DNA of 64,000 nt from the IMG/VR virus record IMGVR_UViG_3300045988_116240; one strand, given 5' to 3'. Numbering within the stretch: position 1 is the stretch's first letter; every line of letters begins with the position of its first letter. Below the pieces are notes generated by a model that was not told where the DNA came from, made no database searches, and worked only from the letters and a program-made list of their open reading frames with translations. Made by a program: the position numbers and the translations under genes. Below are positions 1,970-23,122 of the stretch, in pieces. The stretch is from a virus.

Positions 1970-1975
1970 GAGGAT

Positions 1976-3569: not shown

Positions 3570-3583
3570 AAAATAATTTACAT

Positions 3584-4125: not shown

Positions 4126-4293
4126 ATGAAACAAAAAACAAGTTCTTTGTCGGATCTAATCCACCCGATAGAGGTATCCGCTGATGAGCAGGAAGAAGTT
4201 AAGGTTTATCCTTTTGGAAAGTTGGTCCCATATCGAAGGGTAGGGAATAAGGTGTATGTGCGTTATATAAGGAATATAGATGAACGGACATAG
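4126..4293 (+). CDS. small hypothetical protein (55 aa)
   Basis: Hand-found ORF MKQKTSSLSDLIHPIEVSADEQEEVKVYPFGKLVPYRRVGNKVYVRY..., followed by a hairpin plus T-run. Confidence 0.3.
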   Translation: MKQKTSSLSDLIHPIEVSADEQEEVKVYPFGKLVPYRRVGNKVYVRYIRNIDERT

Positions 4294-4305
4294 TTTTCTT
4301 TGAAA

Positions 4306-4330
4306 GAGGCCGTTAATGCGGTCTTTTTTT
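4306..4330 (+). terminator. hairpin + T7 run
   Basis: ggccgt-taat-gcggtc (two G-U pairs) followed by ttttttt. Confidence 0.45.
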
Positions 4331-4615
4331 ATGCTTATATATTAATATGTATGCGCGCGAGGAAACATATGGATTTTTTAGTATATTGCGAAGCGTTTGA
4401 AAATGACGGTATGTGCTGTGGTTGATTTTAACTGTTCCAATGACTTACTTTTAAGCTTTTTGGCAGTTATTGAAGTGTCAAAAATTAAACCTAAATGTTT
4501 GTATATTGTTTTACCTTTTTTGCTAAACATCTGATAATCATATATAGAATTACTGCGGCGCAAGCAGCTATAGAAGGATAGGCTGTTAAAAACTGCAAGT
4601 CTTAAATATCAATAT

Positions 4616-4664
4616 ATAAGGCTGATAGACGGGTTGAGTCTTGTTTATCAGCCTTATATTTTTA
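4616..4664 (+). terminator. 12-bp perfect hairpin + T-run
   Basis: ataaggctgata (4616-4627) pairs with tatcagccttat (4646-4657), followed by attttt. Confidence 0.55.
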
Positions 4665-4703
4665 TGTCATTATTAGCGTAAAATGATCTGAATGATATGT
4701 GAT

Positions 4704-4756
4704 GTTTACACTTTGTTTGCTATATTTGCACATGGCGTTTACACCGTGTTTACACC
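4704..4756 (+). repeat. three direct GTTTACAC(C) repeats just upstream of the integrase gene
   Basis: gtttacac at 4704-4711, gtttacacc at 4737-4745 and 4748-4756. The last two are 11 nt apart. A related gtttacat lies inside the int 5' end. Confidence 0.6.
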
Positions 4757-7312: not shown

Positions 7313-7867
7313 ATGATCGGAGCGATAGTTGGAGCCGCCAGTTCCTTGGCGAGTGGCATTGCCGGGGGAATAAAGGCAAGGAAGGCGGCTAGAAAAGCGA
7401 ACGCCGTGTTGGATAAACAGGCAAAGGAGAATGAGGATTGGTTTAACCGTAGGTATAACGAGGATTATACCCAAAGCGCGGAGGCGCAAGCCGCCTTGAC
7501 CAAGGCTAGGGAATTAGCGGATGAGCAGTACCGTAAGGCCTCCGGTACCGCCGCGGTCGTAGGAGCTACTGATGAGTCCGTAGCTCAGGCCAAGAAAGCG
7601 GCGGGCGAGGTGATATCCGATACCGCTAGTGGTATAGCCACTAACGCTACCGCACGGAAGGATGCTGTGGAATCCCAATATCTCAACACCAAGAATAATA
7701 TCAGTAACCAAAGGCTGTCTATCTATAATCAACAGGCGGCAAACGCCACGCAAGCGGCTAATCAAGGATTACAGGCAGGGATGGGCCTCGTTGGGGCTGA
7801 TGCGCAAGCCCATCTTGACAAGGGTAAGGGATTATTCGAGTCTATATTCAAAAGTAAACAACAATGA
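7313..7867 (+). CDS. Ala/Gln-rich putative internal virion (ejection/pilot-like) protein
   Basis: 184 aa. Gly/Ala hydrophobic N-terminus MIGAIVGAASSLASGIAGG, then low-complexity A/Q/N helices. An ATGA overlap couples it to the next gene. Confidence 0.55.
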   Translation: MIGAIVGAASSLASGIAGGIKARKAARKANAVLDKQAKENEDWFNRRYNEDYTQSAEAQAALTKARELADEQYRKASGTAAVVGATDESVAQAKKAAGEVISDTASGIATNATARKDAVESQYLNTKNNISNQRLSIYNQQAANATQAANQGLQAGMGLVGADAQAHLDKGKGLFESIFKSKQQ

Positions 7868-8913
7868 CATTAGAGGAAAGATATAATAGGAAAAGGACCC
7901 CGGTCGTTCAAAGGCCGGAATTGTCCACTACGCCATTGGTTGAGCCGGAGGTTGCCGGAAGCCAGAACCCTGTCGCTCCAACCGTGGATAATACGGATGA
8001 GACCGCTCCGCAAGCGAGCGTTGTCGAGCCTCAAATGAACGATTACCAATGGAACCAAAGGCTTTATGAGACGCTCTTTCAAAAGCCGATAAGTCAAGAG
8101 GAGGAGGAGAGAAGAAAACGGGCCGCTTCCGTAGCTACTGGAATCGGGCATCTAGGCAATGTGTTGTCTTCCTTCTCCAATTTGGCATTCGCGGGAGAGG
8201 CACCTTCGCAGAAACTACCCACCGTAGCTGATCCTAAACTACAATCCTATTCTGACAGGTTGGAGGCTATCAGGCAAAGATACGGGGCCGGGTATCTGGC
8301 CGCAAGGCAAAACGACATCAATAATTATCAAAGGGCATTGCAGCTTTATAGACAGGATCAAGCGAGAAAAGCCCAGAATGATTTGGAAAAGGCCAAGATA
8401 GCGCAAAGTGCCGCTCAATTCGCAATAAAGAATGACAGGGAGGAGCGGAAGATGAAACAGGATGCCGCATATAAAGAGAGAGAGTTGGGTATAAGGCAAT
8501 CCAATCTCCGTAGTCTTGAGCAATATCGTACCGCTAAAGCTAATGGTTCTGGGGCGGATAAGTCTATTGACATCATCGGCAGAAACGGTAAACGTTTCAC
8601 TTTGTCCGGTAAGGATAAAGATGGGGTTATCGCTTATATGTATAAGAGGATGTTGGAGTATGCGGAGGAAAATAAAGATAAAAACAAGAGCGTATCGGAT
8701 GTAACGTGGCAGCTTGGTGAAGGTGGAGACCAAAAGACCAAACAAGCCGCTATTGTCATGAGTAATATTCAGAATTTCCCGGAATTATACGATGAGTTTG
8801 ATAGGGTGATCGGATCGGGAGGTTCTTCTAGTAAGGGCAAGCATATCCCTTTAAACGATGAAGGAGGAACAGAAAATACAAACGAAAAATACAGCTGGAT
8901 TCATGGATTCTAA
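7864..8913 (+). CDS. putative virion protein with central coiled coil
   Basis: 349-aa ORF, translationally coupled on both sides to virion-type genes. Confidence 0.55.
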   Translation: MTLEERYNRKRTPVVQRPELSTTPLVEPEVAGSQNPVAPTVDNTDETAPQASVVEPQMNDYQWNQRLYETLFQKPISQEEEERRKRAASVATGIGHLGNVLSSFSNLAFAGEAPSQKLPTVADPKLQSYSDRLEAIRQRYGAGYLAARQNDINNYQRALQLYRQDQARKAQNDLEKAKIAQSAAQFAIKNDREERKMKQDAAYKERELGIRQSNLRSLEQYRTAKANGSGADKSIDIIGRNGKRFTLSGKDKDGVIAYMYKRMLEYAEENKDKNKSVSDVTWQLGEGGDQKTKQAAIVMSNIQNFPELYDEFDRVIGSGGSSSKGKHIPLNDEGGTENTNEKYSWIHGF

Positions 8914-11900
8914 TGTAAAACATTTATATGACGCTATGATTAGCCAAGGATATACGGGACTTGGCGATTTCTCTAATTTTGAGGGTAAGATGAAAGACTC
9001 TGGAAAGAGGAGAATGGTTTATGATTATTTGATACAAGATGATTATTTCTCCGAGATAGGCGATTTCTCCAAGTTCGAGAGTGCCCTAGGGTATTCGCCC
9101 GCAGAGAGGAAAGATTACGTTTCTCAATCAAGCGTTAATCCTGCACCTATCGCTTTAAGACAGGAGGTTGACGTGCCTATGAAGGATCAATCGGAATACG
9201 TTAATCCGTGGACGAACTCACCTGATTACAATTTTGAGTCCTTGCGTAAAAAAGGAAAGATTGAGACCGCTACTCCTCCACCTCCTACGGAGTATGAGAA
9301 GGATTCTTCTTTCATGAATACTTGGGTAGGAGACGCTATACAGAAACTTAACGCAGGAGGAGCCGATCTTGGTGCCGGTATATTTGGGGTCTTGGATAAG
9401 GCGGCTAAAGGGTTGGAATCCGCAACGGGAGGACTGATCCCACGTGGCGGGGCATTCAAGGATATCTCAGATATATTTAAGGCTGATGCGGAGTTTTCCC
9501 GGGCAAGGTCAAACAGATACAATGGCAAGGATTTCACCGATCTTTGGAAAGAAGGGAATTATATGGGTGCCATAGGTGATATAGCCTTGCAAGGCGTAGA
9601 GTCGCTTCCGATGTCAATCGGGGCCATGGCCGCTACAATGGCCGGAGCTCCAGCGGCCGGACTCGCAGGTATAGGGTCAATAGTAGCTAGCCAGAAATAT
9701 GATGATCTTGACCAGAATAACCCAAACATGGGAGAGTTCGCAAAGGTATCTAACGCTATTCTTACAGGTACGGCAGAATCCTTGTCTGAGATGCTGGGCG
9801 CTGGCGTATCCAAGGCTTGGATGTCAACCTTATTCAAGACGTTAGGAAAGGAAAAGGCACAAGAGGCTATCAAGCGTGGCATAATGGGTAAGATGCAAGA
9901 GTTCTATAAAAAATTCGGTATGTTTTTCGAGCCTGTAAATGAAGGTATCGAAGAGGTATCTTCCACGCTAGCGGAGAATATAACGGATAAGATAACAGGT
10001 GCGGATCCGGAAAGGGATTTGACCGATGGTGTATTGCAGAGTTTTGTCTATGGAATGGGAGGCGGCGCTTATTTTACTGGGGCCGGAGCGTTGGCTAAAG
10101 GTGCGCAATACGTAGCGGATAAAATAGGAGGCAAACAGGCTCAGCAGCCTATCACCGATTCCAATGTAACAGATCAAGGCGTTGAAACTCCTCCTCTATT
10201 AACTAAGTCTAGGTTTGCCGAGGCAGAGGAAGAAGGTCGAAATATGACTGATCCGGGCGATATACGGACGGCGAGCAAAAAGATGGAAGAGACAAGGCTT
10301 TCCCTATCTGGAATGGTTCCGGGTTTGGCTAGTACGATAGAAAGCTATGTGGATGATAAAGCTAGCGAGGCCCAAGTGATGAGTCTTCTTGATGGAGTTA
10401 ATGCGGATGCCCGTCCGTTAGCCGAGGATTTCTACGCTGATTATCTCAGGATATCCGGTTTGCAGGATCGTATAGGCGAGGAAATAGACAATGAGGTTGA
10501 AACTTACGTTGCCAATAATATTACTCCTTATGTTACCACGAATCCTGATGGTCAGTCTATCGTTACCATGGCTACGCTTAGCGAGGGAAATGAGGAAAGA
10601 CCTGTGTACGTTAGGAGTATCGAGGGAGATAAGGCCGTTATTTCCGATAACGGACAGGATCGGATGGTCTCGGTGAAAAGGTTGAGCGATATAGTAGAGC
10701 AAGATGCCGGTCATATGAGACGGACCTATGAGGATCAATTATTGGCTAACCGCCAGTCCGAGCTTGACATGACCATGCATCATAATCCCAAGACGCAATT
10801 ACCAAAGCCGGGGTTGATCGTATGGAACGGGGATAATGCGTTTATCCTTCAAGGACAAGATGAGAACGGTGATTGGATCGCTCAACCTGCGGCTTATGAT
10901 AGAGAAACCGGGCAGGTGACAGCCAAGAATGGCTCTTCTCCAGCAATGCCTATAACAGAGAATGAGATTCTTGATCTTCAAGATGCCATATATGACGCTC
11001 AACAAGTTAATGTGGTGTCGCCAGAGGATGATAATGTTGCAAGTGCTGATGCCGAGATAACCTCTGCACCTCCCGTGGAAGATGCGATCAACCAGCCAAC
11101 GAGTGAGATTGAGACGGAAGGTGCCATTGATCAGATAGCACAACCTAGCAATGTGGAGAATCTTTCCATGGTTATGCGAGAAGATGGTACACCCGATTTC
11201 GTATCATCAGGAACGGATATGGCCTTGGATTTCCTCTATGATAAATATGGCGATAAGATGCCAAGGAAGATCGAGGTGACGAGAAAGTCTTTCGATGAAA
11301 GCCTTAAAAAAGCGTCTGATGCCTTGGAAAAGGCGCAAGAGGCATACGATGATGCCCCTATCGGAAAAGAGGATAAGCCTGAGGCCGCATTGATAAAAGC
11401 CCGACAAGAATATGAGGCGATCAAGGTCGAGGCTGATTTCTGGGCTAATCTTGATGATGATATCAAGGAGGCCAGCAAGAAGCCGGGTGATGTCATAGCG
11501 AAGGAGATCTCCGTGATAGGTGATCCTATGAGCGGAGAGGAGCTTGCGGCCATGATGCTGGCTAATGGGGCGATCAAATTGACACGTGACAGTTACAAGA
11601 AAGAGACCGGTGCCGGGAATAATGAGACAGCGAGGATGTTCGGACTGTTCGCCTCTCCGGAGAAAGGCGGTGTTAATATAGAGAGGGCGGGTGAGATATT
11701 GGAGCTTGCCGATAGGGAGAATGGCACTAACTTCTTCGATGAGAACGATACGAACGCCGGAAGGGACGCTATCATAGAGGTCTTGTCTTCCGCTCATACA
11801 CGTGGAGACTTGATCGATTATGTCAAGAGGAACCGTGAGGCGATCGCTGAGCGTGAGAGACAGGCCGAGTACAACGCTTACGCTGAGTGGTGCGAGGAGA

Positions 11901-14900
11901 ATTATCATATGTCCCCGGAAGAATACGAGGCGTATGAGGAAAGCATGGTACGTGATTTCTCGGAGAAACAATTGACTGATGAGGAGCGAGGCGAGCTTGA
12001 TTCGCAAATCGTGGATGAAATACAGGCCATAATTGACGAACAAAATGAAATAGACGCTATCTTAGCGCAAAATAAACCGATAGAAAATGAAAACATTGAA
12101 GGAAATGACGAAAGCGGAGGCGATGGCTTACGCGAGGGAGGCGGCGAGGTACTGCCAAGAGAACAACTTGATCAGACCGGGGGAACTGGAGAGGTTGAGG
12201 GAAGAGAATCGGCTGGCCCCGACATTGATCGCACGGATGGAGCTACACAAGAAGGCTCATCAAGGGGACTAGTTCCTTTTGTCGCTCCTTCTCCAAAGGA
12301 GAATGAGACCCCATTGGACTATGCCGAGCGCATAGTTGAGGCTAAGAGATTGCACGAAGAGGAGCTAAAGGTTGATACCAATCCAACCGAGGCGCAGAAA
12401 GAGGCCGGCAATTACAAGAAAGGCCATATAAAGATAAACGGTTTTGATGTCACCATAGAGCAGCCCGCCGGTTCCGTCCGTTCCGGTAAGGACGCTAGCG
12501 GAAAGGAGTGGTCGCAGGTCATGAATAACACTTACGGTTACATTCGAGGTACTGAAAGTGTGGATGGTGATCATATAGACGTATTCCTAGGTCCGGATAT
12601 GAATAGTGACATGGTGTATGTCGTGGATCAGGTGAATACTGATGGCTCATTCGATGAGCATAAGGTTATGATGGGATTCCCTTCCTTGGAAGACGCTAGG
12701 TCCGCTTACTTGTCAAACTATGAGGAGGGTTGGCAAGGGTTAGGCAACATTACCGGGGTCACGTTGGATGGGTTCAAGAAATGGATTGATTCCTCGACTC
12801 GCAAAACAAAGCCCTTCTATGAGTATAAGGGAATTAAACAGGAGGAAAGCGATATTTCTAAAAATAATGATTCTGATAATTATAGCATTGTTTCCTCCCA
12901 ATATACTACCAAGAAAGGAAAAGTTCTTGATATGTGGCTATTGAAGTTCGGTAATGAATTATCGAAGGAACAGCAACGTGCCGCCAAAGAGCTAGCCAAG
13001 GCTGAAAAGGGTTGGTATGACAGGGAACAGCGAGGTTTCATGATGCGTAGCGATGAAAGCGCAAGGCGGTTGGCTGATACCATTCTTGGCGATACCGATG
13101 CCGTAAGCGATGCGCAACCTATTTCTCTTGAAGACACACGCAGGGTCGTAGAGCCTCAAAAGGTAAATGTAGAAAACCTTATTGGTGATATCAACGATAA
13201 GGGCAAAGCCAAATTGAGCGATCGTACCGTTACCCCTAGCGGTAACCGCCTTGTTACCGATGAACGGTATGCGGAACTCCGTGAGCGCATGCGCAAGAAA
13301 CTAGGCGGTCAAATGAATATGGGTGTTGATCCTGAGATATTGGCGATAGGTACTGAAATGGCGGTTTATCATATAGAGAAAGGCTTGCGTAAGTTCTCTG
13401 ATTACTCAAAGGCTATGATCGATGATCTAGGTGACGCTATACGACCGTATCTTAAATCATTCTACAATGGAGCGAGGGATTTACCGGAAGTAGAAGAGAA
13501 CGGATGGGATAAGGATATGACCACTTATGAGGATGTCCGTTCGTTTGATGTAGCTAATTTTGATAAGCCAGTCCCGGATATAATGGATGCCGCTGAGACC
13601 GTGGTTAAAGAGACTGAGATTGCCGGACAAGCGAGTGCCGCGGAGAAAAAAATAAAAAATAGCCGGAAAAAGCGAACGGACAACAAGGACAAACCATTAC
13701 CTTTGTATGGTAACGATTTATTCACTCCTAATAATATTAAAGACAATGAGCAAGGAAATTCAAGAGCGGATCAAGGCGTGGGAAGAAAAGCACGGGAAGA
13801 GGATCGAGGATCTGAACGCGGAGGAGACCGTGGAGGCGTGCATGGAAGTGATGTGCTTGACACGGAGCGAGGCCGAGGAATACCTATCAGCGACAGCGAC
13901 AAGCGGCCTGTTGTAAGGAATCAAAACAATTTCAGCTTCCCGGAGAAAGGTATTGAGCTTCCTTCCGGTGATATATCCAAGCTAAAAGCCAATATTGAGG
14001 CGATAGAAACGCTGAAAGACGTAGAGGACGGCCAAGGAAAACCTACCCCGGAACAACAAGCCAAGATGTCAAGGTACGTTGGATGGGGAGGTTTGGCCGA
14101 AGCCTTGAACGAAGGCAAATACAACGCACGTGACAACAATTGGACTAAGGATCGAAATTGGAATGATAAGTATCTACGTTATTATGAGAAACTAAAATCC
14201 TTATTAAGTAAAGAAGAGTTCGACAGTGCCGTCCGTTCCACGACAACCTCTCATTATACCCCGTCCGAGGTCGTGGAAAGCTTATGGGGAATAACGGAGA
14301 AACTTGGATTCAAGGGTGGCAATATCAGTGAACCCGCTATGGGTATAGGCAACATAATCGGTATGATGCCTAGGTCTATATCTGAAAACTCAAGTATAAG
14401 TGGGTTCGAGATAGATAGTTTATCCGGTCGTATGGCAAAGGCTTTATATCCTGACGCTAATATAAAGGTACAAGGATATGAGAAAGCGTTTTCTCCAAAC
14501 TCGAAAGACTTAGTTATCACCAACGTCCCATTCGGGAAAAACGCTCCATATGATAAGGTTTTAGATAAGCAATTCAGGAAGAAACTTGGTTCCTCTTATA
14601 ATCTCCATAATTATTTTATCCTAAAGGGGCTTCTGGAATTGAAAGAAGGTGGTCTCGGCGTATTCGTCACGTCCTCGGCTACGATGGATGGGGCCGATAG
14701 TAAGTTCCGTGAGTACGTGAGTGGGAACGGTTATGATCTGGTCGGAGCTATCCGATTGCCTAATGACGCTTTCCAGAAAGGGGCCGGCACGAGTGTCACG
14801 GCCGACATCGTTATATTCCGTAAAAGAAAGTATGGGGAACCTTCGAATGGGATAGGGTTCGCTACTACAACGCAAATAGGTGAAGGAACTTATATGGAGG

Positions 14901-17900: not shown

Positions 17901-20900
17901 TGTTCGATAAGGTCCGTAATGGGGATGTGCGCATTCTTATTGGAAGCACGGAGAAAATGGGAGTGGGTGTCAACGTGCAAGATCGTCTATTCGCCCTGCA
18001 TCATATTGACGCTCCAATCAGGCCTATGGATTTTGAGCAACGCAACGGTCGTATCTTACGACAAGGAAACTTATACGCCACATGGGATAAACCGGTGAAC
18101 ATCGTCACATATGGCGTTAAAGGTACCCTTGACGCTACCGCCTATGACAGGCTTCGTATAAAACAAAACTTCATCAACCAAATGATGAAAGGCGATATAT
18201 CGTCTCGTGTAATGGAGGAGCAAGACGATAGTGATCCGTCTGGAATGACATTTAGTGAGATGGCGGCGACGTTATCAGGAGATAAGACCGCCCAACTGCT
18301 GTTTGTGGCACAGAACAAGTTAAAGAAATTGCAAAACTCCAAGAGGAGCGATCTTAACAGTAAGTCTTCCATGCGTGACTCTATATCTAACTCCAAACTT
18401 AGGATACAAGAATACAACAGCCGGAAGGATATCATGGAAAGGAACGCCAATATCGTAAAAGAAAACTTCCCTGATGGGGTTGAGTCCGTGACTGTTAAAG
18501 GCAATACTTTCAGCGATGGTATATCGAATGAGCTTACGCCCATTATTGATGATTACTATGATAGATATACGCTTGACAGAAACACCCCTCCTCTGAAAAT
18601 CAGTCTCAATGGAGGAAAAGGCGAGGCAATCGTGCATTTCAATGAAGGTATGATGGTCTATAGCTTATATTTAGGAAAGGAAAAACTGGTTGAGAATCGT
18701 GATTTTAGCGGCGGCAAGGGTTTGATGGCTAGCATTGACAGGCAGTTGGGGATTCCCGCTAAATCCGTCTCAGATATAGCCGCTAAAATAAAGGCAGAGG
18801 AAAACAAGATAGCGGGATTAGAGGAAGCCGTTAAGAAACCGTGGGGAAAAGAGGATGAACTTAATGCGGCTCAGGCAGAGGTTAATGATCTGCAGAGACA
18901 ATTAGTTGAAAAAGCTAAAGCTGAGGATATTCAGTTAGAATCAACTCTTGACGTTGATGGTACGTTGGTAAAAGAGGAAGGAGAGACTCGATTTCGATTC
19001 ATGGGAGTAGATACAACTAATAATCAGGATAATGTAAGTTCTATTGAATCCTCAATCAACGATTGGTCAAACAAGCTTAATACCCCTGTCAGGGTAATCC
19101 ATGACGTGGACGATATAAACGATACGGATGAGAATATGTTGGCCCGTAAGAGAGATTCCAAAGGCTGGTATGATACTTCTACCGGGGAGATAGTCATAGT
19201 ATCACCTAATTCCACGTCCGTAGGTGACGCTCAAAGGACTTTCCTCCATGAGGTGGTAGGGCATCATGGGTTACGTGAGCTATTCAGGGATGATTTCGAT
19301 ACTTTCCTTGATAACGTGTATCGGAACGCCAACGAGGATATCCGGAAAAATATCATTGATCGGACTAAAGGCAATCCTCTTAACTTGCGTGAGGCTACAG
19401 AGGAATACCTCGCTGAATTAGCGGAACGTGGTTTCGATAACAAGGCCGAGCGTTCGTTATGGGAAAAGATCAAGGACTCTTTTCTTGATATGTTGAGAAA
19501 GGCAGGTATTAGTCTTGATTTCAAGTTATCGGATAATGACCTCCGTTATATTCTCTGGAGAAGCTATAAGAACTTGGAGCAAGGAAACTTGATGGATGTG
19601 GCCGAGGATATCGTGATGAGAAATAGATTAAGTCTTAACAATATAAATTTGAACGAAAATGGATCAATCGCAAGAGATATTGAACCTGAAAAAGGAAAAC
19701 AACCTTCTGAAACAAAAGGTACTGGAAGGGAACTCGAGACAATCGATGGCGTTGATGAGAACGGAAACGAAAGTGAACGAGACCATATCGACAAACCAAG
19801 GGGAGTTGAAAACGCTATTGACGGAACTGAAAACGCAACTGACCGAAATGGAAAAAAGACTGACGGCCAAGTTGACAACGATGGAGACCAACTTGACGGA
19901 GGAGATACGGGCGATAGGAACGGAAGTGTCCGGGATGGAATCGGCGGTGATCGGACTGTCATCGGACGTGCAGGATCTGAAAACAAGGGTAGAGGCGTTG
20001 GAGAAAGCGTAAGGGAAAAGACGGATGATTTCTCTTTCGCCGAGAAAACAATCCGTTTTAGGGAGAACGCGCGGAATGAGTCGGTATTGTTCGCTGATAA
20101 TGATATCCAAGTAGTAGAGAAACAGGTAGGTTCCGCCAAAGATCAATATGAGCGTACCCTATCTACATCGTCCTATCAATTTCAGGAGGCGTTTCAGGAT
20201 TCTATGCTAGGGCTTAAAACATTGCAGGATGCCGTGGCAAAGGCAACGAGGAGTCGTATATTGGATTATGAGAACGCTTATATGGCCGAGAATGCCCTTT
20301 CCTCCGTTAATGAAGCGGAGTTCAACGCTTATAGGAAAGCGGCTTTCGAGCCTATCTTAAAAGCGATCTCACGTTTGGAAAAGATGGGATCCACCATTGA
20401 TGAGATAAGGGATTACCTTATAACCAAGCATGGTATTGAGCGTAACAGGGAAATGGCCGTTAAACGAGTGTTGTCACAAAACTCGGAAACATATAAATCC
20501 CTGCTTGACGAGTATATCGGGAGAAGGAATGAGATACGTGAGAACGGTAGGTCTTGGGAAGAGCAGCAATCAGAAATGGATAGGCTTTCCGAGGAATACG
20601 GAGCTAATCTTTCTGATGATTTCAGCGGATTCACGTCCATGTATCCTAACGAGGATAACACGGGGTATGATCCGGATTCCGCAAGGAGATACGTATTGGA
20701 TTACGAGTCAAGATATGATACATCGGAATTATCGGCCTCTGTCAAAAGAGCCACTGACGCTATATTGGCAAAGCAACGGGATAGCGGGCTTATGAGCCAA
20801 AATACGTTTGATTCGATCAGCGATATGTATCAGTTCTATGTGCCTTTGCGTGGATGGGAGGAGACTACGGCAGATGAGGTTTACGCTTATCTTACATCCG

Positions 20901-23122
20901 AAAGCCAAACGTTCAACGCCCCTATAAAGACTGTCGTTGGGCGAAAGAGCAAGGCTGACGATCCTATAGCGACGATCGCTAATATGGCAGAGAGCGGAAT
21001 CATGCAAGGGAATAGGAACTTGATGAAGCAAAAGTTTTTGACAATGGTACAAAACCATAAGACGGATCTCGTGAGCGTAAGCGAAATGTGGGTTCGTCTT
21101 GACGAGGCTTCCGGTGAGTGGATCGCCGTTTTCCCGGATATACCATCTAACGCCAATCCGGAACAGGTGGAGTCTATCGTGGAATCTTTCAACAAACGCA
21201 TGGAGGAGCTATCCAATGAAAAAGGATCTAATGTTAGACGTTCAAGGGATGCTATAGGGATACCTTACAAGATATTGCCAAAGGACTTGAAGGAGCATCA
21301 AGTGATCGTAAAGAGAGCCGGCAAAGAATACTTACTTACCATAAACGGGAACCCAAGGGCCGCTCAAGCGTTGAACGGGCTTACAAACCCGGATAATACG
21401 AAAGGATGGTTTGGTACCGTGGAGAGATACGCCGGATGGCTGAATCGAAACTTGGCGGCTAATTTTACGACACGTAACCCGAATTTCATGGTAAGTAACT
21501 TCCTCCGTGACGCTCTTTATTCGAATACTACCGTATGGGTCAAGGAAAGTCCTGTATACGCATGGAAGTTCAATAAGAATTTCGCTATGGTAAACCCGAT
21601 CAATATGTATCGTCTGGTCAAGGGGTATGAGAACGGTACGTTGGATATGAGCGATCCATTGAATAAGGCATATCATGATTTTGTAATGAGAGGAGGAGAG
21701 ACCGGATACACCAATTTGAGAGACGTGGAAGCCAAGAAGAAGGCGATCCAAAAAGAACTTCAATACTCCAAGCAAAAGGTATCTATCGGAAAGGCTTTGA
21801 AAATACTAGGCGAATGGATGGACTTGTTCAATAAGAGCGTAGAGAATTGCGCTAGGTTCGCCGCGTTCATTACTTCTAGGGAAATGGGGCGGAGCATGGA
21901 TAAATCCATTTATGACGCTAAGGAGATATCCGTAAACTTCAATAAGAAAGGGGCGGGTTCAAAATTCTTGAATACTGAGGGGCAGACCAAGATAGGTAAC
22001 GCTAGCGCTTTCACGTCCGGATTGTCAAGATCCATGTATGTGTTTTGGAACGCTGGTGTACAAGGTATGTATAATTTCGGAAGGCTAGCCAAGGATAATC
22101 CCAAGAAATTCTTGGGGTTAGCGTCCTCTTTCTATTTACTTGGCACTATCATGCCTATGATCGCTGCCGCTTTTGGGGATGATGAAGATGATGATTACTA
22201 CGATCTTCCGGAATACGTGAGACGTAATAATATCTGTTTCCGTAACGGTGGAGGAAATTGGATTACAATTCCTATGCCCATAGAGTTAAGGGCTATATAT
22301 GGACTAGGAGAAATGTCTTCTGGAATAGTTTCCGGAAAGGAGAAGTATACCGATAAAAAGATGGCCATGAAGATAGCGGAGCAAATGTCACAGGTTCTTC
22401 CTTTGGACATGATGGAGGGAGGTGGAGGATTCTCCGCTTTCGTCCCAAGCTCGGTAAAGCCATTGATTGAGGCCGGAGATAACAAGGATTGGACAGGTTT
22501 GCCTTTATATAAGGATAACGATTTCAACAAGGGTATGCCTGAATGGACGAAGGCTTTCAAGAGCGTGGATCCCGCTATATTGGCGATGACTGAATATGCC
22601 AATAAGTTGACCGGTGGAGATAAATACACTATCGGTGCGGTTAATCTGAACCCGGCCATTATAGAGCATATATTGGACGGCTATTTCGGAGGTATCGAGG
22701 CTACACGTGCGCAGATGGTCAAATCCGCTGAAACCGCTTGGGGTAGTCGTGATTTTGACTGGAGGAATATCCCTGTCGGGAACCGTCTTATAAAAAGTGG
22801 TGATGAGCGGACGAAAAAGAAAGCCATAGATAACGCTTATTATGAGAATTTGGAGGAAATGGATAAGATCGGACAAAGATTGAGAGGATATCGTAAAGAA
22901 TTGTCTAATCCACAGAACGATAGTTTTGATATAGCAGAGTATCAGAAAAAATTGAATGATCTTATGATGAGCGATGAATATCGTGGATATGTAGAGTTTA
23001 ATAATCTTAACAAATTGTATCAATCAATGGGTGAGTATTTGAAGAAGGTAGATGATGAAAGATTGGAAATGGAGTTATACGATTTGAAAGCTATGATGAA
23101 TGAGATAGCTAATGGTAAATAG
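8858..23122 (+). CDS. giant polyvalent protein (4754 aa): pyrophosphatase-like + N6-adenine MTase + SNF2/DEAD helicase + zincin-like + C-terminal membrane-associated region
   Basis: A single uninterrupted 14.3 kb ORF. Motifs are listed in the sub-features below. The true start may be the ATG at 8903 (MDSNVKH). Confidence 0.9.
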   Translation: MKEEQKIQTKNTAGFMDSNVKHLYDAMISQGYTGLGDFSNFEGKMKDSGKRRMVYDYLIQDDYFSEIGDFSKFESALGYSPAERKDYVSQSSVNPAPIALRQEVDVPMKDQSEYVNPWTNSPDYNFESLRKKGKIETATPPPPTEYEKDSSFMNTWVGDAIQKLNAGGADLGAGIFGVLDKAAKGLESATGGLIPRGGAFKDISDIFKADAEFSRARSNRYNGKDFTDLWKEGNYMGAIGDIALQGVESLPMSIGAMAATMAGAPAAGLAGIGSIVASQKYDDLDQNNPNMGEFAKVSNAILTGTAESLSEMLGAGVSKAWMSTLFKTLGKEKAQEAIKRGIMGKMQEFYKKFGMFFEPVNEGIEEVSSTLAENITDKITGADPERDLTDGVLQSFVYGMGGGAYFTGAGALAKGAQYVADKIGGKQAQQPITDSNVTDQGVETPPLLTKSRFAEAEEEGRNMTDPGDIRTASKKMEETRLSLSGMVPGLASTIESYVDDKASEAQVMSLLDGVNADARPLAEDFYADYLRISGLQDRIGEEIDNEVETYVANNITPYVTTNPDGQSIVTMATLSEGNEERPVYVRSIEGDKAVISDNGQDRMVSVKRLSDIVEQDAGHMRRTYEDQLLANRQSELDMTMHHNPKTQLPKPGLIVWNGDNAFILQGQDENGDWIAQPAAYDRETGQVTAKNGSSPAMPITENEILDLQDAIYDAQQVNVVSPEDDNVASADAEITSAPPVEDAINQPTSEIETEGAIDQIAQPSNVENLSMVMREDGTPDFVSSGTDMALDFLYDKYGDKMPRKIEVTRKSFDESLKKASDALEKAQEAYDDAPIGKEDKPEAALIKARQEYEAIKVEADFWANLDDDIKEASKKPGDVIAKEISVIGDPMSGEELAAMMLANGAIKLTRDSYKKETGAGNNETARMFGLFASPEKGGVNIERAGEILELADRENGTNFFDENDTNAGRDAIIEVLSSAHTRGDLIDYVKRNREAIAERERQAEYNAYAEWCEENYHMSPEEYEAYEESMVRDFSEKQLTDEERGELDSQIVDEIQAIIDEQNEIDAILAQNKPIENENIEGNDESGGDGLREGGGEVLPREQLDQTGGTGEVEGRESAGPDIDRTDGATQEGSSRGLVPFVAPSPKENETPLDYAERIVEAKRLHEEELKVDTNPTEAQKEAGNYKKGHIKINGFDVTIEQPAGSVRSGKDASGKEWSQVMNNTYGYIRGTESVDGDHIDVFLGPDMNSDMVYVVDQVNTDGSFDEHKVMMGFPSLEDARSAYLSNYEEGWQGLGNITGVTLDGFKKWIDSSTRKTKPFYEYKGIKQEESDISKNNDSDNYSIVSSQYTTKKGKVLDMWLLKFGNELSKEQQRAAKELAKAEKGWYDREQRGFMMRSDESARRLADTILGDTDAVSDAQPISLEDTRRVVEPQKVNVENLIGDINDKGKAKLSDRTVTPSGNRLVTDERYAELRERMRKKLGGQMNMGVDPEILAIGTEMAVYHIEKGLRKFSDYSKAMIDDLGDAIRPYLKSFYNGARDLPEVEENGWDKDMTTYEDVRSFDVANFDKPVPDIMDAAETVVKETEIAGQASAAEKKIKNSRKKRTDNKDKPLPLYGNDLFTPNNIKDNEQGNSRADQGVGRKAREEDRGSERGGDRGGVHGSDVLDTERGRGIPISDSDKRPVVRNQNNFSFPEKGIELPSGDISKLKANIEAIETLKDVEDGQGKPTPEQQAKMSRYVGWGGLAEALNEGKYNARDNNWTKDRNWNDKYLRYYEKLKSLLSKEEFDSAVRSTTTSHYTPSEVVESLWGITEKLGFKGGNISEPAMGIGNIIGMMPRSISENSSISGFEIDSLSGRMAKALYPDANIKVQGYEKAFSPNSKDLVITNVPFGKNAPYDKVLDKQFRKKLGSSYNLHNYFILKGLLELKEGGLGVFVTSSATMDGADSKFREYVSGNGYDLVGAIRLPNDAFQKGAGTSVTADIVIFRKRKYGEPSNGIGFATTTQIGEGTYMEDGDKRSKPIMVNEYFSNHPDMMLGDMMTAYDAGSGGLYSGASQTLKAKPGADLSKELFNAIDNLPKNILSGVVETKGPEVVGDSTLKDGTITVQNGNVFVLDGDSLKPIKANPTFVHNGKTRKIADAVNDYNDIKKNLYDLIHDEQTKGVDPEPARKRLNKVYDAFVSKYGTLNRNKALDDIFAEDVEHGLPFSLETVRRVPSTTGKSMVWEVSKADGILNKRVSYPFELPTKADNVLDAVNISKSYKGNIDIPYISEITGMDEVNVTNEILEKGIAYRDPVTGNIIDKSEYLSGNVKDKLVEAKAALEDHPEFQKNVDDLEAVQPERIPYGEISYRLGTTWIPSEFINNFADNVLGISYANANFIPEIGEYILDKRAFITDYAKAGQFKTERMDAIDVFKAALNQRKPKVYDEIKYYEDGKQKTRRVVNEQETQAVAEKISDMSDKFVEYIDSKTMFHGRIEDVYNDKYNNYVLKKYDKPVFEHYPNANKNITLRDHQSKAVQRCLSESTLLAHQVGTGKTFTMITSAMEMRRLGIAKKPMIVVQNATLEDFVRDFYKLYPSAKILSPTKEERNADNRTRLFNLIATGDFDAIVVPQSFMAFIPDSEERKKAYIQKRIDDFEEAIDRIEDKALQERLKREAKSMRDSLEGIKKGKNVKGKAKTAETITAKTERILDRRTDNVMTFEQMGVDALFIDEAHNYKKIGFPSKMSNVKGIDTSASQRANSMLLKAQWISENNGGRNVVLATGTPITNTMAEVWTMMNFVAPDILDAYNINSFDEFATTFGTVEPSLEFTATGNFKIAERFKSYTNVPELIKAFRSHTDVVLTEDVKEFKEDKNIPKLKDNKMTNVIVEKNEDLEDVMQTLIKELEDYNKLTGKEKKDKSALPLVVFSKAKQAAIDLRLLNPTFPDNPDSKTNKVVDNVLRLYKESDKDKGTQLIFCDSYQSPSETPKMDLFDVDLSVPQFNLYNDIKEKLIKGGIPSNQIAIVGNYEGERRNALFDKVRNGDVRILIGSTEKMGVGVNVQDRLFALHHIDAPIRPMDFEQRNGRILRQGNLYATWDKPVNIVTYGVKGTLDATAYDRLRIKQNFINQMMKGDISSRVMEEQDDSDPSGMTFSEMAATLSGDKTAQLLFVAQNKLKKLQNSKRSDLNSKSSMRDSISNSKLRIQEYNSRKDIMERNANIVKENFPDGVESVTVKGNTFSDGISNELTPIIDDYYDRYTLDRNTPPLKISLNGGKGEAIVHFNEGMMVYSLYLGKEKLVENRDFSGGKGLMASIDRQLGIPAKSVSDIAAKIKAEENKIAGLEEAVKKPWGKEDELNAAQAEVNDLQRQLVEKAKAEDIQLESTLDVDGTLVKEEGETRFRFMGVDTTNNQDNVSSIESSINDWSNKLNTPVRVIHDVDDINDTDENMLARKRDSKGWYDTSTGEIVIVSPNSTSVGDAQRTFLHEVVGHHGLRELFRDDFDTFLDNVYRNANEDIRKNIIDRTKGNPLNLREATEEYLAELAERGFDNKAERSLWEKIKDSFLDMLRKAGISLDFKLSDNDLRYILWRSYKNLEQGNLMDVAEDIVMRNRLSLNNINLNENGSIARDIEPEKGKQPSETKGTGRELETIDGVDENGNESERDHIDKPRGVENAIDGTENATDRNGKKTDGQVDNDGDQLDGGDTGDRNGSVRDGIGGDRTVIGRAGSENKGRGVGESVREKTDDFSFAEKTIRFRENARNESVLFADNDIQVVEKQVGSAKDQYERTLSTSSYQFQEAFQDSMLGLKTLQDAVAKATRSRILDYENAYMAENALSSVNEAEFNAYRKAAFEPILKAISRLEKMGSTIDEIRDYLITKHGIERNREMAVKRVLSQNSETYKSLLDEYIGRRNEIRENGRSWEEQQSEMDRLSEEYGANLSDDFSGFTSMYPNEDNTGYDPDSARRYVLDYESRYDTSELSASVKRATDAILAKQRDSGLMSQNTFDSISDMYQFYVPLRGWEETTADEVYAYLTSESQTFNAPIKTVVGRKSKADDPIATIANMAESGIMQGNRNLMKQKFLTMVQNHKTDLVSVSEMWVRLDEASGEWIAVFPDIPSNANPEQVESIVESFNKRMEELSNEKGSNVRRSRDAIGIPYKILPKDLKEHQVIVKRAGKEYLLTINGNPRAAQALNGLTNPDNTKGWFGTVERYAGWLNRNLAANFTTRNPNFMVSNFLRDALYSNTTVWVKESPVYAWKFNKNFAMVNPINMYRLVKGYENGTLDMSDPLNKAYHDFVMRGGETGYTNLRDVEAKKKAIQKELQYSKQKVSIGKALKILGEWMDLFNKSVENCARFAAFITSREMGRSMDKSIYDAKEISVNFNKKGAGSKFLNTEGQTKIGNASAFTSGLSRSMYVFWNAGVQGMYNFGRLAKDNPKKFLGLASSFYLLGTIMPMIAAAFGDDEDDDYYDLPEYVRRNNICFRNGGGNWITIPMPIELRAIYGLGEMSSGIVSGKEKYTDKKMAMKIAEQMSQVLPLDMMEGGGGFSAFVPSSVKPLIEAGDNKDWTGLPLYKDNDFNKGMPEWTKAFKSVDPAILAMTEYANKLTGGDKYTIGAVNLNPAIIEHILDGYFGGIEATRAQMVKSAETAWGSRDFDWRNIPVGNRLIKSGDERTKKKAIDNAYYENLEEMDKIGQRLRGYRKELSNPQNDSFDIAEYQKKLNDLMMSDEYRGYVEFNNLNKLYQSMGEYLKKVDDERLEMELYDLKAMMNEIANGK
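12404..12830 (+). other. domain: inorganic-pyrophosphatase-like module of the giant protein
   Basis: NYKKGHIKINGFDVTIEQPAGSVRSG...YGYIRGTESVDGDHIDVFLG...DEHKVMMGF resembles the family I PPase signature YGxIPxT..DGDPxDVLV. Confidence 0.45.
13930..14960 (+). other. domain: N6-adenine DNA methyltransferase module
   Basis: SRYVGWGGLAEAL; AdoMet motif I ISEPAMGIGNIIG (about 14330); catalytic motif IV DLVITNVPFGK (14522-14536). Confidence 0.75.
16350..18150 (+). other. domain: SF2 (SNF2/DEAD-like) helicase module
   Basis: Motif I AHQVGTGKTF (16441-16470), motif II FIDEAHNYKK (16982-17002), motif III LATGTPITN, motif V GSTEKMGVGVNVQ, motif VI QRNGRILRQGN (18038-18070). Confidence 0.8.
19000..19560 (+). 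other. domain: zincin-like metallopeptidase-type module (non-classical HExxxH)
   Basis: TFLHEVVGHHGLRELF (19241-19270). The spacing is HEVVGH rather than HExxH, so catalytic competence is uncertain. Confidence 0.45.

Follow-up and report, generated by a model that had tools for sequence, protein, structure and literature searches.

[quoted passage not shown] 2017, PMC5512222). The features catalogued for polyvalent proteins include the GXGU motif of LPD36 and a HEXXXH variant of peptidases (PMC5512222). Giant multi-enzyme proteins of such type are already known from other short-tailed phages, and documented DarB-like members of 3,764-5,007 aa take up ~22% of a podovirus genome. In the Lessievirus group, Bcep22 gp75 and JC1 gp69, which are 79% identical, are each encoded by a single ORF of ~4,500-4,900 aa, which fills ~22% of the roughly 60-kb genome of a temperate podovirus. 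The gene is found at the end of the morphogenesis module, preceded by genes for small virion-associated proteins, and relatives occur in Ralstonia, Erwinia, Klebsiella, Vibrio and Agrobacterium phages. In CsCl-purified JC1 virions, 51 unique peptides were assigned to gp69, and gp67 and gp68 were identified as well (PMC9144972).

Three other systems are relevant. P1 DarB, a myovirus protein of 2,255 aa composed of a methylase-helicase dyad only, is located in the head and bears at its N-terminus a 30-residue signal for capsid targeting (PMC9024508); its packaging depends on this signal and on DarA, Hdf, DdrA and DdrB, which DarB needs, and it guards incoming DNA from type I restriction. The LPD38-bearing gp47 of the short-tailed temperate Stx phage phi24B was identified in virions, although it is invisible in the reconstruction, and an ejection function was proposed for it (bioRxiv 10.64898/2026.04.10.717836). 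Lastly, T7 gp14, gp15 and gp16 are encoded by three consecutive genes of rising size. In Bacteroides, the isolated phages BF1-TP2 and BKO1-TP3 carry giant genes in the same synteny, i.e. integrase, gp14-like gene, second small gene, giant gene and portal/terminase. A literature search on BF1-TP2 or on Bacteroides DarB-like phages returned nothing specific.

Here we analysed a stretch of 64,000 nucleotides from the IMG/VR record IMGVR_UViG_3300045988_116240 (hereafter the window), in which one ORF unites an InPase domain, an N6-adenine methylase, an SNF2 helicase, a HEXXXH peptidase-like module and an LPD38 module (Table 1). We consider it likely that this ORF, carried by a temperate podovirus-like phage of Bacteroides, specifies a phage-type polyvalent protein that belongs to the family of giant DarB-like virion proteins.

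Table 1. Features of the giant gene and of its two upstream neighbours in the window. Residue numbers refer to the 4754-aa frame.
Feature	Coordinates	Strand	Basis or remark
Upstream gene, 184 aa, possible T7 gp14-like internal virion protein	7313..7867	+	Sub-cut-off Pfam T7_gp14
Second upstream gene, 349 aa, 0 Cys	7864..8913	+	Overlaps both neighbours
Giant polyvalent ORF	8858..23122	+	4754 aa; start probably ATG 8903, giving 4739 aa
Extreme N-terminus, aa 16-80, duplicated GDFSxFE motif	8903..9097	+	BLASTP
N-terminal module a, about aa 140-445, Gly/Ala-rich, hydrophobic	9275..10192	+	Recurrence in homologues
N-terminal module b, about aa 715-1170, unannotated	11000..12367	+	Conserved ahead of InPase
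InPase, aa 1178-1310	12389..12787	+	Pfam PF18823
Exchangeable payload cassette, aa about 1331-3395, here DarB-like block	12848..19041	+	IMG/VR comparison
LPD36-like helical region and gamma-class N6-adenine DNA methyltransferase	13955..14977	+	BLASTP, PHROG
SWI2/SNF2-type SF2 helicase/translocase (GTGKT, DEAH, QRNGR)	16376..18352	+	Pfam, PDB, BLASTP
Junction motif TRFR, aa 3377-3380	18986..18997	+	Just before peptidase-like module
Zincin-like metallopeptidase-type module, HEXXXH (H3464, E3465, H3469) and TEEY helix	19010..19657	+	Motif, AF2
Conserved C-terminal module, ~1,020 aa (aa 3732-4754), mostly alpha-helical	20051..23122	+	Homologues, AF2
Junction motif IRFR, aa 3732-3735	20051..20062	+	Start of C-terminal module; pLDDT about 30
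Hydrophobic helix, aa 4418-4440, and acidic patch DDEDDDYYD	22109..22204	+	Kyte-Doolittle 1.65
LPD38, aa 4444-4640	22187-22777	+	Pfam PF18857

An intact giant ORF in a podovirus-like prophage

The window encodes an integrase, a terminase large subunit, a P22-type portal, an SU10-like capsid protein and tail fibres, and no tape measure protein was seen in it. The host element is an integrase-bearing, temperate, podovirus-like Bacteroides prophage. A search for prophage attachment sites revealed no direct repeat of at least 14 nt between ~3.9-4.8 kb and 60-64 kb. The initial annotation had placed the giant gene among virion genes, which holds only loosely: its operon is flanked by the integrase/regulator module on one side and by the terminase gene on the other, and the portal gene is ~20 kb away on the opposite strand. 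In relatives, the giant gene is directly upstream of the portal gene, and in BF1-TP2 and BKO1-TP3 the two genes are likewise next to or near each other. The position of the operon here, outside the head-tail block, counts against a packaging reading.

Translation of the giant ORF showed no internal stop codon. The frame covers 14265 of the 64000 bases (22.3%), in agreement with the uninterrupted 14.3-kb ORF and the share of about 22 percent previously noted, and we take it that a frame open over 4754 codons cannot arise by chance. All the motifs quoted earlier were found where they had been placed, namely EPAMGIGN (1825-1832), NVPFG (1889-1893), GTGKT (2532-2536), DEAH (2711-2714), QRNGRILRQGN (3061-3071), HEVVGHH (3464-3470), the hydrophobic segment and DDEDDDYYD (4441-4449). 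Since the alignment of BF1-TP2 gp68 begins at residue 16, and since ATG 8903 overlaps the upstream stop codon by 11 nt, exactly as gp69 and gp68 overlap in BF1-TP2, translation probably starts at this ATG.

Intact giant ORFs with the same ends were rebuilt from 27 independent IMG/VR contigs, and therefore the ORF is no assembly artefact. They encode 4648-4934 aa in 23 contigs and 3306-3507 aa in the other four, which have other payloads; the contig pair L022/L117, which gave no sensible merge, was left out of this count. Homologues of the giant protein were searched with three segments separately. The representative library contains hundreds of homologues, many of more than 4000 aa and the longest of 5,572 aa. 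The initial annotation had regarded the size of the protein and its combination of modules as unusual. They are in fact typical of the known family, as Bcep22 gp75, JC1 gp69 and BKO1-TP3 gp55 are comparable.

N-terminal modules and the InPase domain

At the extreme N-terminus, residues 20-79 align with residues 8-64 of BKO1-TP3 gp55 (35% identity, E 1.8e-5, BLASTP), and this segment is thus kept in a protein whose N-terminus otherwise diverges. By analogy with the targeting signal of P1 DarB, aa 16-80 are a candidate capsid-targeting or anchoring leader. The Gly/Ala-rich, hydrophobic character attributed to the N-terminal region was confirmed, with 21-27% Gly and Ala in aa 101-300 and a hydrophobic peak at aa 252-276. 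The corresponding module a has a conserved core, PVxEGxEE...TG...FVYGxGGG (alignment A5), and recurs in giant homologues, at their N-termini, as well as in shorter proteins. It gave no match in Pfam, PHROG or the PDB, and Pfam was also negative on seven short carriers. A PDB profile match to the C-terminal domain of the Bacteroides fragilis T6SS effector Bte1 reached an E-value of 0.12 only and was rejected. Module b is found in many giant homologues, with the best stretches spanning 700-1156, and that part of the carriers matched nothing in Pfam. Over aa 1-1170, Pfam, PHROGs and NCBIfam detected no lytic transglycosylase, lysozyme or hydrolase.

The module initially described as pyrophosphatase-like is recognized far above the Pfam cut-off (PF18823, E 1.7e-58, 196.7 bits for a cut-off of 26.8, profile positions 1-134 of 135). 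It belongs to the type-I inorganic-pyrophosphatase-like OB folds in the clade of polyvalent proteins, and it contains the acidic motifs DGDHID and DGSFDEHK. In PDB profile searches, its match is the C-terminal domain of 9b41_L, a portal protein of solved structure (E 1.3e-34). With InPase and LPD38 both far above their Pfam cut-offs, the proposal of a phage-type polyvalent protein stands.

The DarB-like methylase-helicase block

In the central part of the protein, PHROG family phrog_10089 (DarB-like antirestriction) matches aa 1625-3591 with 2004 bits. In dyads of the DarB type, an LPD36 helical domain with the GXGU motif stands at the N-terminus, and the methylase is of the EcoKI/TaqI-like gamma class, with a TP-capped helix, motif I and a motif IV of the NPP(Y/F) type. 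The methylase harbours a TP motif (HYTPSE), motif I (EPAMGIGN) and motif IV (NVPFG) and aligns with residues 72-275 of P1 DarB, whose motif IV is also NVPFG. Its score for Pfam Eco57I, 24.7 bits, is just under the cut-off of 25.3; together, the BLASTP and PHROG matches bear out the N6-adenine methyltransferase that the motifs had suggested. About 80 aa upstream of motif I, a GWGG sequence fits the GXGU motif of LPD36, without a profile match to the LPD36 model. The helicase proposed in the initial annotation is confirmed and is fused C-terminally to the methylase: it matches SNF2-rel_dom (5.7e-9), ResIII (5.5e-7) and Helicase_C (2.6e-4) in Pfam and SNF2/ISWI proteins in PDB profile searches, and it aligns with residues 614-1212 and 1474-1603 of P1 DarB.

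The three BLASTP stretches shared with P1 DarB (E 4e-19 for the methylase, 1e-14 and 2e-7) are collinear, at 23-27% identity over these partial stretches, and NVPFG and QRNGR are identical. The DarB analogy drawn in the initial annotation is thereby raised to homology, between gamma-class N6-adenine methylases and between SF2/SNF2 helicases. Nevertheless, the dyad is here an internal cassette of a protein that is far larger and belongs to a podovirus-like phage, and head packaging and protection from type I restriction would apply to this protein by homology. No DarA, Hdf, DdrA or DdrB partners were identified in our analyses.

Collinearity extends further with Bcep22 gp75, in which BLASTP aligned residues 1342-3181 with 1461-3357 of the giant protein (E 0) and residues 3710-4459 with 3774-4613 (E 9e-33). 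The order of methylase, SNF2 helicase, linker region and LPD38 C-terminal module is the same in Bcep22 gp75 and JC1 gp69, and two small genes also precede the giant gene here, although their virion nature is putative. Identity to Bcep22 gp75 is limited to 21-29%, and the host belongs to the Bacteroidota here rather than to the Pseudomonadota. Furthermore, the N-terminal thirds are unrelated, with two unannotated modules and InPase in place of the part of Bcep22 gp75 that includes a lytic transglycosylase, and the gene adjoins the integrase gene instead of closing the morphogenesis module.

Payload exchange among close relatives

Comparison of IMG/VR loci showed that the DarB-like cassette is swapped for 1.9-2.9 kb of other sequence in nine of the 40 informative loci, between flanks that are 92-99% identical. 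The replacement payloads encode PBECR5, ART-PolyVal with PBECR5, or ART with LPD23. Likewise, BF1-TP2 gp68 (3,633 aa, annotated 'hypothetical') is devoid of the DarB-like cassette: its N-terminal 1,310 aa are 75% identical to those of the giant protein and its peptidase-like module 88%, but ART/PBECR5-type payloads replace the methylase-helicase block. BKO1-TP3 gp55 (5,553 aa, annotated DarB-like) shares InPase, the DarB-like block (37% identity), the peptidase-like module (47%) and LPD38 (41%), and differs by another, longer N-terminal part. Close relatives among these Bacteroides phages differ mainly in the payload within the giant protein. If the payload sets which restriction or defence systems are overcome, such exchanges would help to explain gut host range and strain-level phage-host dynamics.

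A putative peptidase module and recurrent junction motifs

The zincin-like HEVVGHH motif of the initial annotation is present, but the conserved zinc site is HEXXXH (H3464 and H3469) and not HEXXH. Across 43 homologues, T-E-E-Y never varies, and the H, E and H residues show at least 90% conservation. The confident AlphaFold2 model of the module (pLDDT 84.9) is composed of a helix, three strands, the HEXXXH helix and a Glu helix, in the order described for zincin-like peptidases of polyvalent proteins, in which a HEXX(X)H helix and a later helix with Glu are set on a core of an N-terminal helix and three strands. Pfam and Foldseek searches of the PDB gave no support, and anthrax lethal factor came second at an E-value of 1.4. 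Since the PDB profile, Foldseek and Pfam searches were all negative, the zincin assignment is kept at the level of motif and topology, and we describe the region as a putative HEXXXH metallopeptidase variant on account of its motif and predicted topology only. Matches to BiP in the PDB profile search were spurious, as they fell on a flanking coiled region.

Motifs of the type [IVT]RFR are enriched at module starts. The TRFR motif lies in a predicted disordered stretch, with pLDDT below 50 at model residues 9-15, and stand-alone homologues of the C-terminal module begin with MLFRDGD or MFRPGD at the position aligned with IRFR. A DNA recombination site was rejected as an explanation; the codons differ among the sites, and conservation is therefore at the protein level.

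The conserved C-terminal module

The ~850-aa C-terminal region of the initial annotation does contain a hydrophobic segment followed by an acidic patch, but the conserved unit is longer, about 1,020 aa. More than 300 homologues at 41-99% identity share about 90 invariant residues with it, and tblastn detected it in 346 phage records, including Stx, Bcep22-like, Ralstonia and Vibrio phages. Elsewhere, it is joined to many different effector domains, and stand-alone C-terminal/LPD38 genes adjoin P22-type portal genes. The LPD38 domain itself scores far above the Pfam cut-off (PF18857, E 3.7e-37, 128.7 bits for a cut-off of 27), and the hydrophobic helix (residues 686-710 of the model) and the acidic patch are kept in the family (consensus ...GDxDDDDKNxYYNLPEYVRR in alignment A1). 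The same LPD38 module is found in phi24B gp47 and in the 933W-type 'LPD5 domain-containing protein' (2,811 aa), with an E-value of about 1e-30 over 85% of the module in tblastn; identity is about 22%, and the payload there is LPD5, LPD1 and MuF-C instead of InPase and a DarB-like block.

The AlphaFold2 model of the module (pLDDT 76.8, pTM 0.74) matched nothing in the PDB by Foldseek, nor did its sequence profile, and hhalign of that profile with T7 gp16 gave a probability of 0.1%. Among BFVD predicted viral structures, 71 matches were found, the best with a TM-score of 0.75. The module is probably the constant virion or ejection part of the giant protein. Modules a and b and LPD38 are recurrent in hundreds of giant phage proteins, which makes them good targets for structure determination.

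Two small genes precede the giant gene

The two upstream genes overlap one another (ATGA at 7864-7867) and the second also overlaps the giant ORF, an arrangement compatible with the translational coupling proposed in the initial annotation. Their description as virion-type genes is not established. Neither has a PHROG or NCBIfam match, and T7_gp14 is just below the Pfam cut-off. The 184-aa protein lacks Cys; its N-terminal segment is Gly-rich and hydrophobic, and a helical region rich in Ala and Gln comes next. The protein matches Pfam T7_gp14 (PF24072) with an E-value of 1.1e-5 and 25.9 bits for a cut-off of 27, over profile positions 2-164 of 187, and this is the sole family matched by 13 of its 19 homologues (best E 6.5e-6). 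Alignment of the family with T7 gp14 itself by hhalign was negative (0.75% probability). The gene keeps its place ahead of the giant gene in BF1-TP2 (41% identity), BKO1-TP3 (46%) and 80 IMG/VR loci, and tblastn against phages detected it in three Bacteroides phages only, always annotated 'hypothetical'. The 349-aa protein has no significant family match in Pfam, PHROG or NCBIfam; it is 26% identical to BF1-TP2 gp69 and 74% to its counterpart at a Parabacteroides sp. ZJ-118 locus.

The resemblance to T7 gp14-gp15-gp16 resides in the three consecutive genes of rising size, the first product of about 190 aa, the podovirus context, the near absence of Cys in both sets and, presumably, the task of spanning the envelope. 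The hhalign comparisons with T7 gp14 and T7 gp16 were both negative, and we do not propose that the proteins are homologous to the T7 core. Moreover, the third protein is 3.6 times longer here and carries enzymes, with no transglycosylase domain. Indeed, Pfam and PHROG detected no peptidoglycan hydrolase domain anywhere in the giant protein, unlike Bcep22 gp75 and T7 gp16.

Packaging, ejection and alternative readings

Cys residues make up 0.11% of the giant protein and 0.97% of the 16 other ORFs of the window, about ninefold more (Poisson P about 2e-14). The median in 96 giant homologues is 0.10%, and T7 gp15, T7 gp16 and Bcep22 gp75 contain no Cys at all. We infer packaging, ejection and antirestriction from the homologues, by which the giant protein is most likely packed into the particle and injected with the DNA. 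Besides the virion-borne homologues JC1 gp69, phi24B gp47 and P1 DarB, this reading draws on the homology of InPase to a domain fused to a portal protein and on the stand-alone LPD38 gene beside the portal gene. Abundant temperate phages of human-gut Bacteroides would then devote about a fifth of their genome to one presumably injected protein of the Bcep22/DarB type. The new details are the structure-orphan C-terminal module of ~1,020 aa, payload swapping, [IVT]RFR enrichment and Cys depletion.

A plausible course of events is as follows. The giant protein would be synthesized late, together with the two small Cys-free proteins encoded upstream, and placed within the capsid near the portal. 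Upon infection, it would pass through the short tail as an unfolded chain, preceding the DNA or accompanying it. Its conserved ends, i.e. aa 16-1330 with the Gly/Ala-rich hydrophobic module and InPase, and the ~1,020-aa LPD38 module including its hydrophobic helix, could form a constant delivery chassis, and they are candidates to build or anchor a path across the envelope. The central payload, an N6-adenine methylase with an SNF2 translocase, may track along the entering DNA and, in the manner of DarB, protect it in cis from type I-like restriction, either by methylation or by shielding. InPase could clear pyrophosphate or a nucleotide signal. The HEXXXH module would probably cut the polyprotein, possibly at the [IVT]RFR linkers; alternatively, it might aid in crossing the cell wall.

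A more specific proposal is that constant N- and C-terminal ejection modules flank a swappable slot, in which the populations of one gut phage exchange antirestriction (DarB-like) for toxin-type (ART, PBECR5) payloads, and that the HEXXXH peptidase frees the modules after ejection, with [IVT]RFR at each module start as the site that it recognizes or cleaves. We put this forward tentatively and consider it rather unlikely as a whole. If true, it would represent a phage counterpart of polymorphic-toxin logic within a single gene. The conserved ends, combined with targeting in the style of P1 DarB, could also serve protein delivery into Bacteroides.

The alternative that fares best holds that the protein is mainly a structural ejectosome or internal core, an analogue of T7 gp16 or of P22 gp16/gp20. 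DNA delivery would depend on the conserved modules at both of its ends, and its enzymes would be passengers that the phage can do without and that contribute little to antirestriction. This is a real possibility, if not a probable one. It accords with a C-terminal module that is better conserved than the rest and also exists on its own beside a portal gene, with a payload freely exchanged in nature, with hydrophobic helices in an essentially Cys-free protein like T7 gp15 and gp16, with the sub-cut-off gp14-like gene upstream and with the conduit role proposed for gp47 by the phi24B authors. Nevertheless, neither T7 gp16 nor any ejection protein of solved structure was found to resemble it in sequence or fold. 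Moreover, its methylase and helicase motifs are undamaged and shared with P1 DarB, which argues for selection on methylase and helicase function. A structural role also overlaps the reading as an injected DarB-like protein rather than excluding it.

It is improbable that the protein is not packaged and acts in the cytoplasm of the producing cell, where it would methylate progeny DNA ahead of packaging like an ordinary orphan methylase of phages, or remodel host or phage DNA while replication proceeds. The gene does adjoin the lysogeny/regulation module, and methylase and helicase activities do not inherently require packaging. However, homologues were detected in virions, the InPase and LPD38 domains are reported solely in virion-linked polyvalent proteins, the extreme Cys depletion is common to ejected proteins, and relatives carry the giant and portal genes in linkage.

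An origin in host defence (DISARM DrmD-like or Zorya ZorD-like) or in a polyvalent protein of a conjugative element is very improbable. The C-terminal part of the helicase does match DrmD, ZorD and a phospholipase-D-like anti-phage protein in PADLOC/NCBIfam, but weakly (27.5 bits against 610, 17 against 1500 and 51.9 against 1100, respectively) and over generic SNF2 helicase motifs only. Membership in a defence system was rejected, as these scores are far under the curated cut-offs and the neighbouring genes are phage genes; ArdC-N, relaxase and T4SS genes are absent, and InPase and LPD38 are each of the phage type only.

Lastly, an assembly or sequencing artefact fusing several genes, for which the split of the region into genes of 4580 and 1014 aa in the related contig L003 might speak, has a negligible probability and is effectively refuted by the 27 contigs with intact ORFs, by the many long homologues in the representative library and by the single ORFs of 3633 and 5553 aa in the isolated phages BF1-TP2 and BKO1-TP3.

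The giant ORF and its relatives

The giant ORF (8858..23122, + strand) encodes a member of a family of giant DarB-like polyvalent proteins, putative ejection proteins of short-tailed phages; isolated Bacteroides phages already have relatives annotated as such. It forms a single open frame of 4754 codons with zero internal stops, as the initial annotation had it, and all motifs quoted there were located at definite positions. By merging IMG/VR locus pairs from the same contig, we rebuilt the intact giant ORF in 27 independent contigs, which rules out that the frame is an artefact. The methylase motif is present in 23 of these (4648-4934 aa, 12 of them exactly 4744 aa), and the other four (3306-3507 aa) carry other payloads. 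Translation probably begins at the second ATG in frame (8903), because the alignment with gp68 of phage BF1-TP2 begins at residue 16 and the resulting 11-nt overlap with the upstream stop codon (8911-8913) is the same as that of gp69/gp68 in BF1-TP2. The gene overlaps are compatible with translational coupling of the giant ORF to the two upstream genes, which had been presented as a feature of the sequence and which we infer from this arrangement.

Features of the window and of the giant protein (residues numbered from 8858)
Feature	Window position	Residues	Details
Tyrosine integrase	4785-6269		
Upstream genes	7313-7867, 7864-8913		mutual overlap ATGA; also overlap the giant ORF
Leader	8903-9097	16-80	duplicated GDFSxFE motif
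Module a	9275-10192	~140-445	Gly/Ala-rich, hydrophobic
Module b		~715-1170	
InPase		1178-1310	PF18823, E 1.7e-58
LPD36-like region and gamma-class N6A methylase		~1700-2040	GWGG (LPD36-like); HYTPSE, EPAMGIGN (1825), NVPFG (1889)
SNF2-type helicase		2507-3165	GTGKT (2532), DEAH (2711), QRNGRILRQGN (3061)
Peptidase-like module		3385-3600	HEXXXH (HEVVGHH, 3464) and T-E-E-Y
Low-complexity linker		3601-3731	
C-terminal module		3732-4754	Pfam LPD38 limited to 4444-4640
Hydrophobic segment		4418-4440	
Acidic patch		4441	DDEDDDYYD
Terminase large subunit (-)	25271-27385		
SU10-like capsid protein	29103-30704		
Tail fibres	35518-38077		Mtd_N heads
P22-type portal (-)	42262-44244		

Residues 1461-3357 and 3774-4613 of the window protein align collinearly with Bcep22 gp75 (4602 aa), at gp75 1342-3181 (E 0) and 3710-4459 (E 9e-33), respectively. 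The comparison with P1 DarB proposed initially is borne out by collinearity in three stretches and by the NVPFG motif, which DarB also has. JC1 gp69, a 79%-identical homologue of gp75, has 4515 aa, represents 22.1% of its genome and is organized as LT-like, methylase, helicase, LPD3 and then LPD38; it was detected in CsCl-purified virions together with the 196- and 510-aa virion-associated proteins that precede it (PMC9144972). In phage phi24B, the 2811-aa gp47 (LPD5, LPD1, MuF-C, LPD38) is abundant in virions and invisible in the map, and its authors propose that it is an ejection protein (bioRxiv 10.64898/2026.04.10.717836). The literature also mentions giant proteins of short-tailed phages, putatively ejected and up to 5007 aa long, and BKO1-TP3 gp55 (5553 aa) is already annotated as DarB-like. 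The initial interpretation was largely right but overstated how unusual the size and module combination are, a claim that does not hold in view of JC1 gp69, the proteins of up to 5007 aa and gp55.

Conserved ends

What stays constant in the protein is its C-terminal module. It has >300 homologues (41-99% identity) with ~90 invariant residues, and the hydrophobic helix and acidic patch noticed initially proved to be conserved features of the family. As a stand-alone protein of ~1,000-1,100 aa, it is encoded directly upstream of a P22-type portal gene; elsewhere, it is fused to varied N-terminal domains (LPD3, LPD23, MuF_C, PBECR3, LPD13, C5-methylase, RadC, helicase). A tblastn search found it in 346 phage records, among which are Stx phages of the 933W/phi24B type as well as Bcep22-like, Ralstonia, Vibrio and Pelagibacter phages. 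Its AlphaFold2 model is mostly helical (pLDDT 76.8, pTM 0.74). Foldseek gave no match in the PDB (best E 0.41). Among predicted viral structures the model has 71 matches; most are the C-terminal ends of giant podovirus proteins, and LT_GEWL or RelA/SpoT domains occur in some.

At the other end, the leader contains a tandem duplication, GLGDFSNFEGKM and EIGDFSKFESAL. It is the sole N-terminal stretch in common with BKO1-TP3 gp55, in which it is kept (E 1.8e-5) despite an otherwise different N-terminus, and it may be a capsid-targeting leader. The Gly/Ala-rich hydrophobic N-terminal region reported initially is present, with 21-27% Gly/Ala at residues 101-300 and a hydrophobic peak at 252-276. 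Hundreds of other proteins contain modules a and b: with residues 16-1171 as query, exhaustive searching by HMMER collected 579 cluster representatives (E<=0.001), and many of these are 3000-5572 aa long. Neither has a match in Pfam, PHROG or the PDB. With the module a profile, the C-terminal domain of Bte1, a T6SS effector of B. fragilis (8zhs_C, 9vnd_J), came up at a marginal, non-significant E of 0.12. The InPase domain has a homologue in the C-terminal domain of a portal protein whose structure is solved (9b41_L, E 1.3e-34).

The DarB-like block and the peptidase-like module

The features of the methylase region match those listed by Iyer et al. for the DarB clade (PMC5512222). BKO1-TP3 gp55 aligns with this region; simple motif searches for EPxxGxG, NxPFG and [DNS]PP[FYW] found none in gp55, whose methylase may be divergent or inactive.

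The HEVVGHH module had been called zincin-like. H3464, E3465 and H3469 are >=90% conserved and the downstream T-E-E-Y is invariant among 43 homologues; the HEXXXH variant was described by Iyer et al. (PMC5512222). The AlphaFold2 model, a confident one (pLDDT 84.9), has its elements in the zincin order: a helix at the N-terminus, then three strands, the helix with HEXXXH and a Glu-bearing helix. Pfam, PDB profile and Foldseek searches gave no significant match. Based on the motif and modelled topology, a zincin is therefore plausible, not proven.

Payload exchange and the [IVT]RFR junction motif

We compared 40 informative IMG/VR loci with flanks 92-99% identical at the nucleotide level. The DarB-like block is kept in 31 of them, and in the other nine (L010, L015, L016, L033, L037, L038, L039, L047, L050) window positions 12848-19041 (residues ~1331-3395) are swapped in frame for 1.9-2.9 kb encoding PBECR5, ART-PolyVal+PBECR5 or ART+LPD23. 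Variation is also seen at another site, immediately before InPase (~12262-12275), where ~10 loci harbour insertions of 0.3-0.6 kb (among them L025-L028, L038, L039 and L042-L044); the L026 insertion encodes LPD13, and that of L027 has no Pfam match. Similarly, BF1-TP2 gp68 has the N-terminus, peptidase-like module and LPD38 module in common with the window protein, with a different payload. Recombinational variability was earlier raised as a possibility by Iyer et al. (PMC5512222).

The motif [IVT]RFR is found in the window protein only at residues 3377 (18986-18997) and 3732 (20051-20062), with 0.44 occurrences expected, and it is precisely there that the peptidase-like and LPD38 modules begin. 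Every payload module in BF1-TP2 gp68 and in the variant loci opens with it; in gp68 the motif marks module starts at residues 1547, 1753, 2258 and 2479. Among 96 giant homologues it occurs 104 times, versus a mean of 9.4 and a maximum of 15 in shuffled sequences (~tenfold enrichment). Its codons vary from site to site, and selection therefore acts at the protein level. Stand-alone LPD38 proteins open with MLFRDGD or MFRPGD, aligned with the [IVT]RFR position. The motif falls in segments or linkers predicted by models to be disordered. We consider it a candidate linear motif for recognition or processing. The interest of the protein now lies in the natural exchange of payloads at fixed junctions, in this motif and in the large conserved modules with no structural or functional assignment.

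Proposed mode of action

According to the best-supported reading, the window protein would be packaged in the virion and ejected. The conserved ends would serve packaging and ejection, and the exchangeable centre, here a DarB-type methylase-translocase, would protect the entering DNA from restriction. We infer each step (packaging, ejection, conduit formation, processing and antirestriction) from homology. Defence-system and conjugative-element readings were excluded by score cut-offs and genomic context.

The protein has five Cys residues in 4754 (0.11%), fewer than expected from the 0.97% of 16 other window ORFs (Poisson P ~2e-14). The median is 0.10% for the 96 giant homologues, and both upstream proteins (184 and 349 aa), Bcep22 gp75, T7 gp15 and T7 gp16 are devoid of Cys. 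Such depletion, a circumstantial argument, is expected of proteins that cross the tail and periplasm unfolded.

The link between the window genes and the T7 core is a functional analogy only. The gp14 signal of the upstream gene is below threshold and was reproduced in 13 of 19 homologues; hhalign against T7 gp14 and gp16 was negative. Unlike Bcep22 gp75 and T7 gp16, the window protein has no cell-wall hydrolase domain, a role that the peptidase-like module might take over; the phi24B authors suggest a comparable role for their protein (bioRxiv 10.64898/2026.04.10.717836).

Genomic setting

The window belongs to a Bacteroides (pro)phage that is temperate and podovirus-like; a tape measure protein was not seen in it. 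The nearest sequenced phage is BF1-TP2 (68 kb, host B. fragilis), which has the same local gene order as BKO1-TP3 and BS-TP4: integrase, small gp14-like gene, second small gene, giant gene, then portal or terminase. The gp14-like gene is present in 80 IMG/VR loci, 44 of which have nearly identical flanks, which makes this a common lineage of gut phages. The portal gene is on the opposite strand, ~20 kb away from the giant gene; in BKO1-TP3, L002 and L003 it comes directly after the LPD38 module, which points to a rearrangement in the window's lineage. The adjoining tail-fibre genes (35518-37494 and 37505-38077) both encode an Mtd_N (major tropism determinant N-terminal) head domain.

Many IMG/VR contigs stop ~2.5-2.8 kb upstream of the gp14-like gene, at window ~4500-4600, and positions 1-4500 may therefore be host flank. 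A search for an att direct repeat of at least 14 nt, comparing ~3.9-4.8 kb with 60-64 kb, found none. Genes for tRNA-Met and tRNA-Arg (732-806 and 1896-1969) lie to the left of the integrase gene, and a tRNA-like call near the right end (63695-63762) is odd in having a 2-base anticodon. Also near that end, a 639-aa ORF (61746-63665, - strand) has weak AAA_13 and AAA_29 P-loop matches (E ~2e-3, below cut-offs) and may represent an ATPase gene carried by the prophage or a gene of the defence type.
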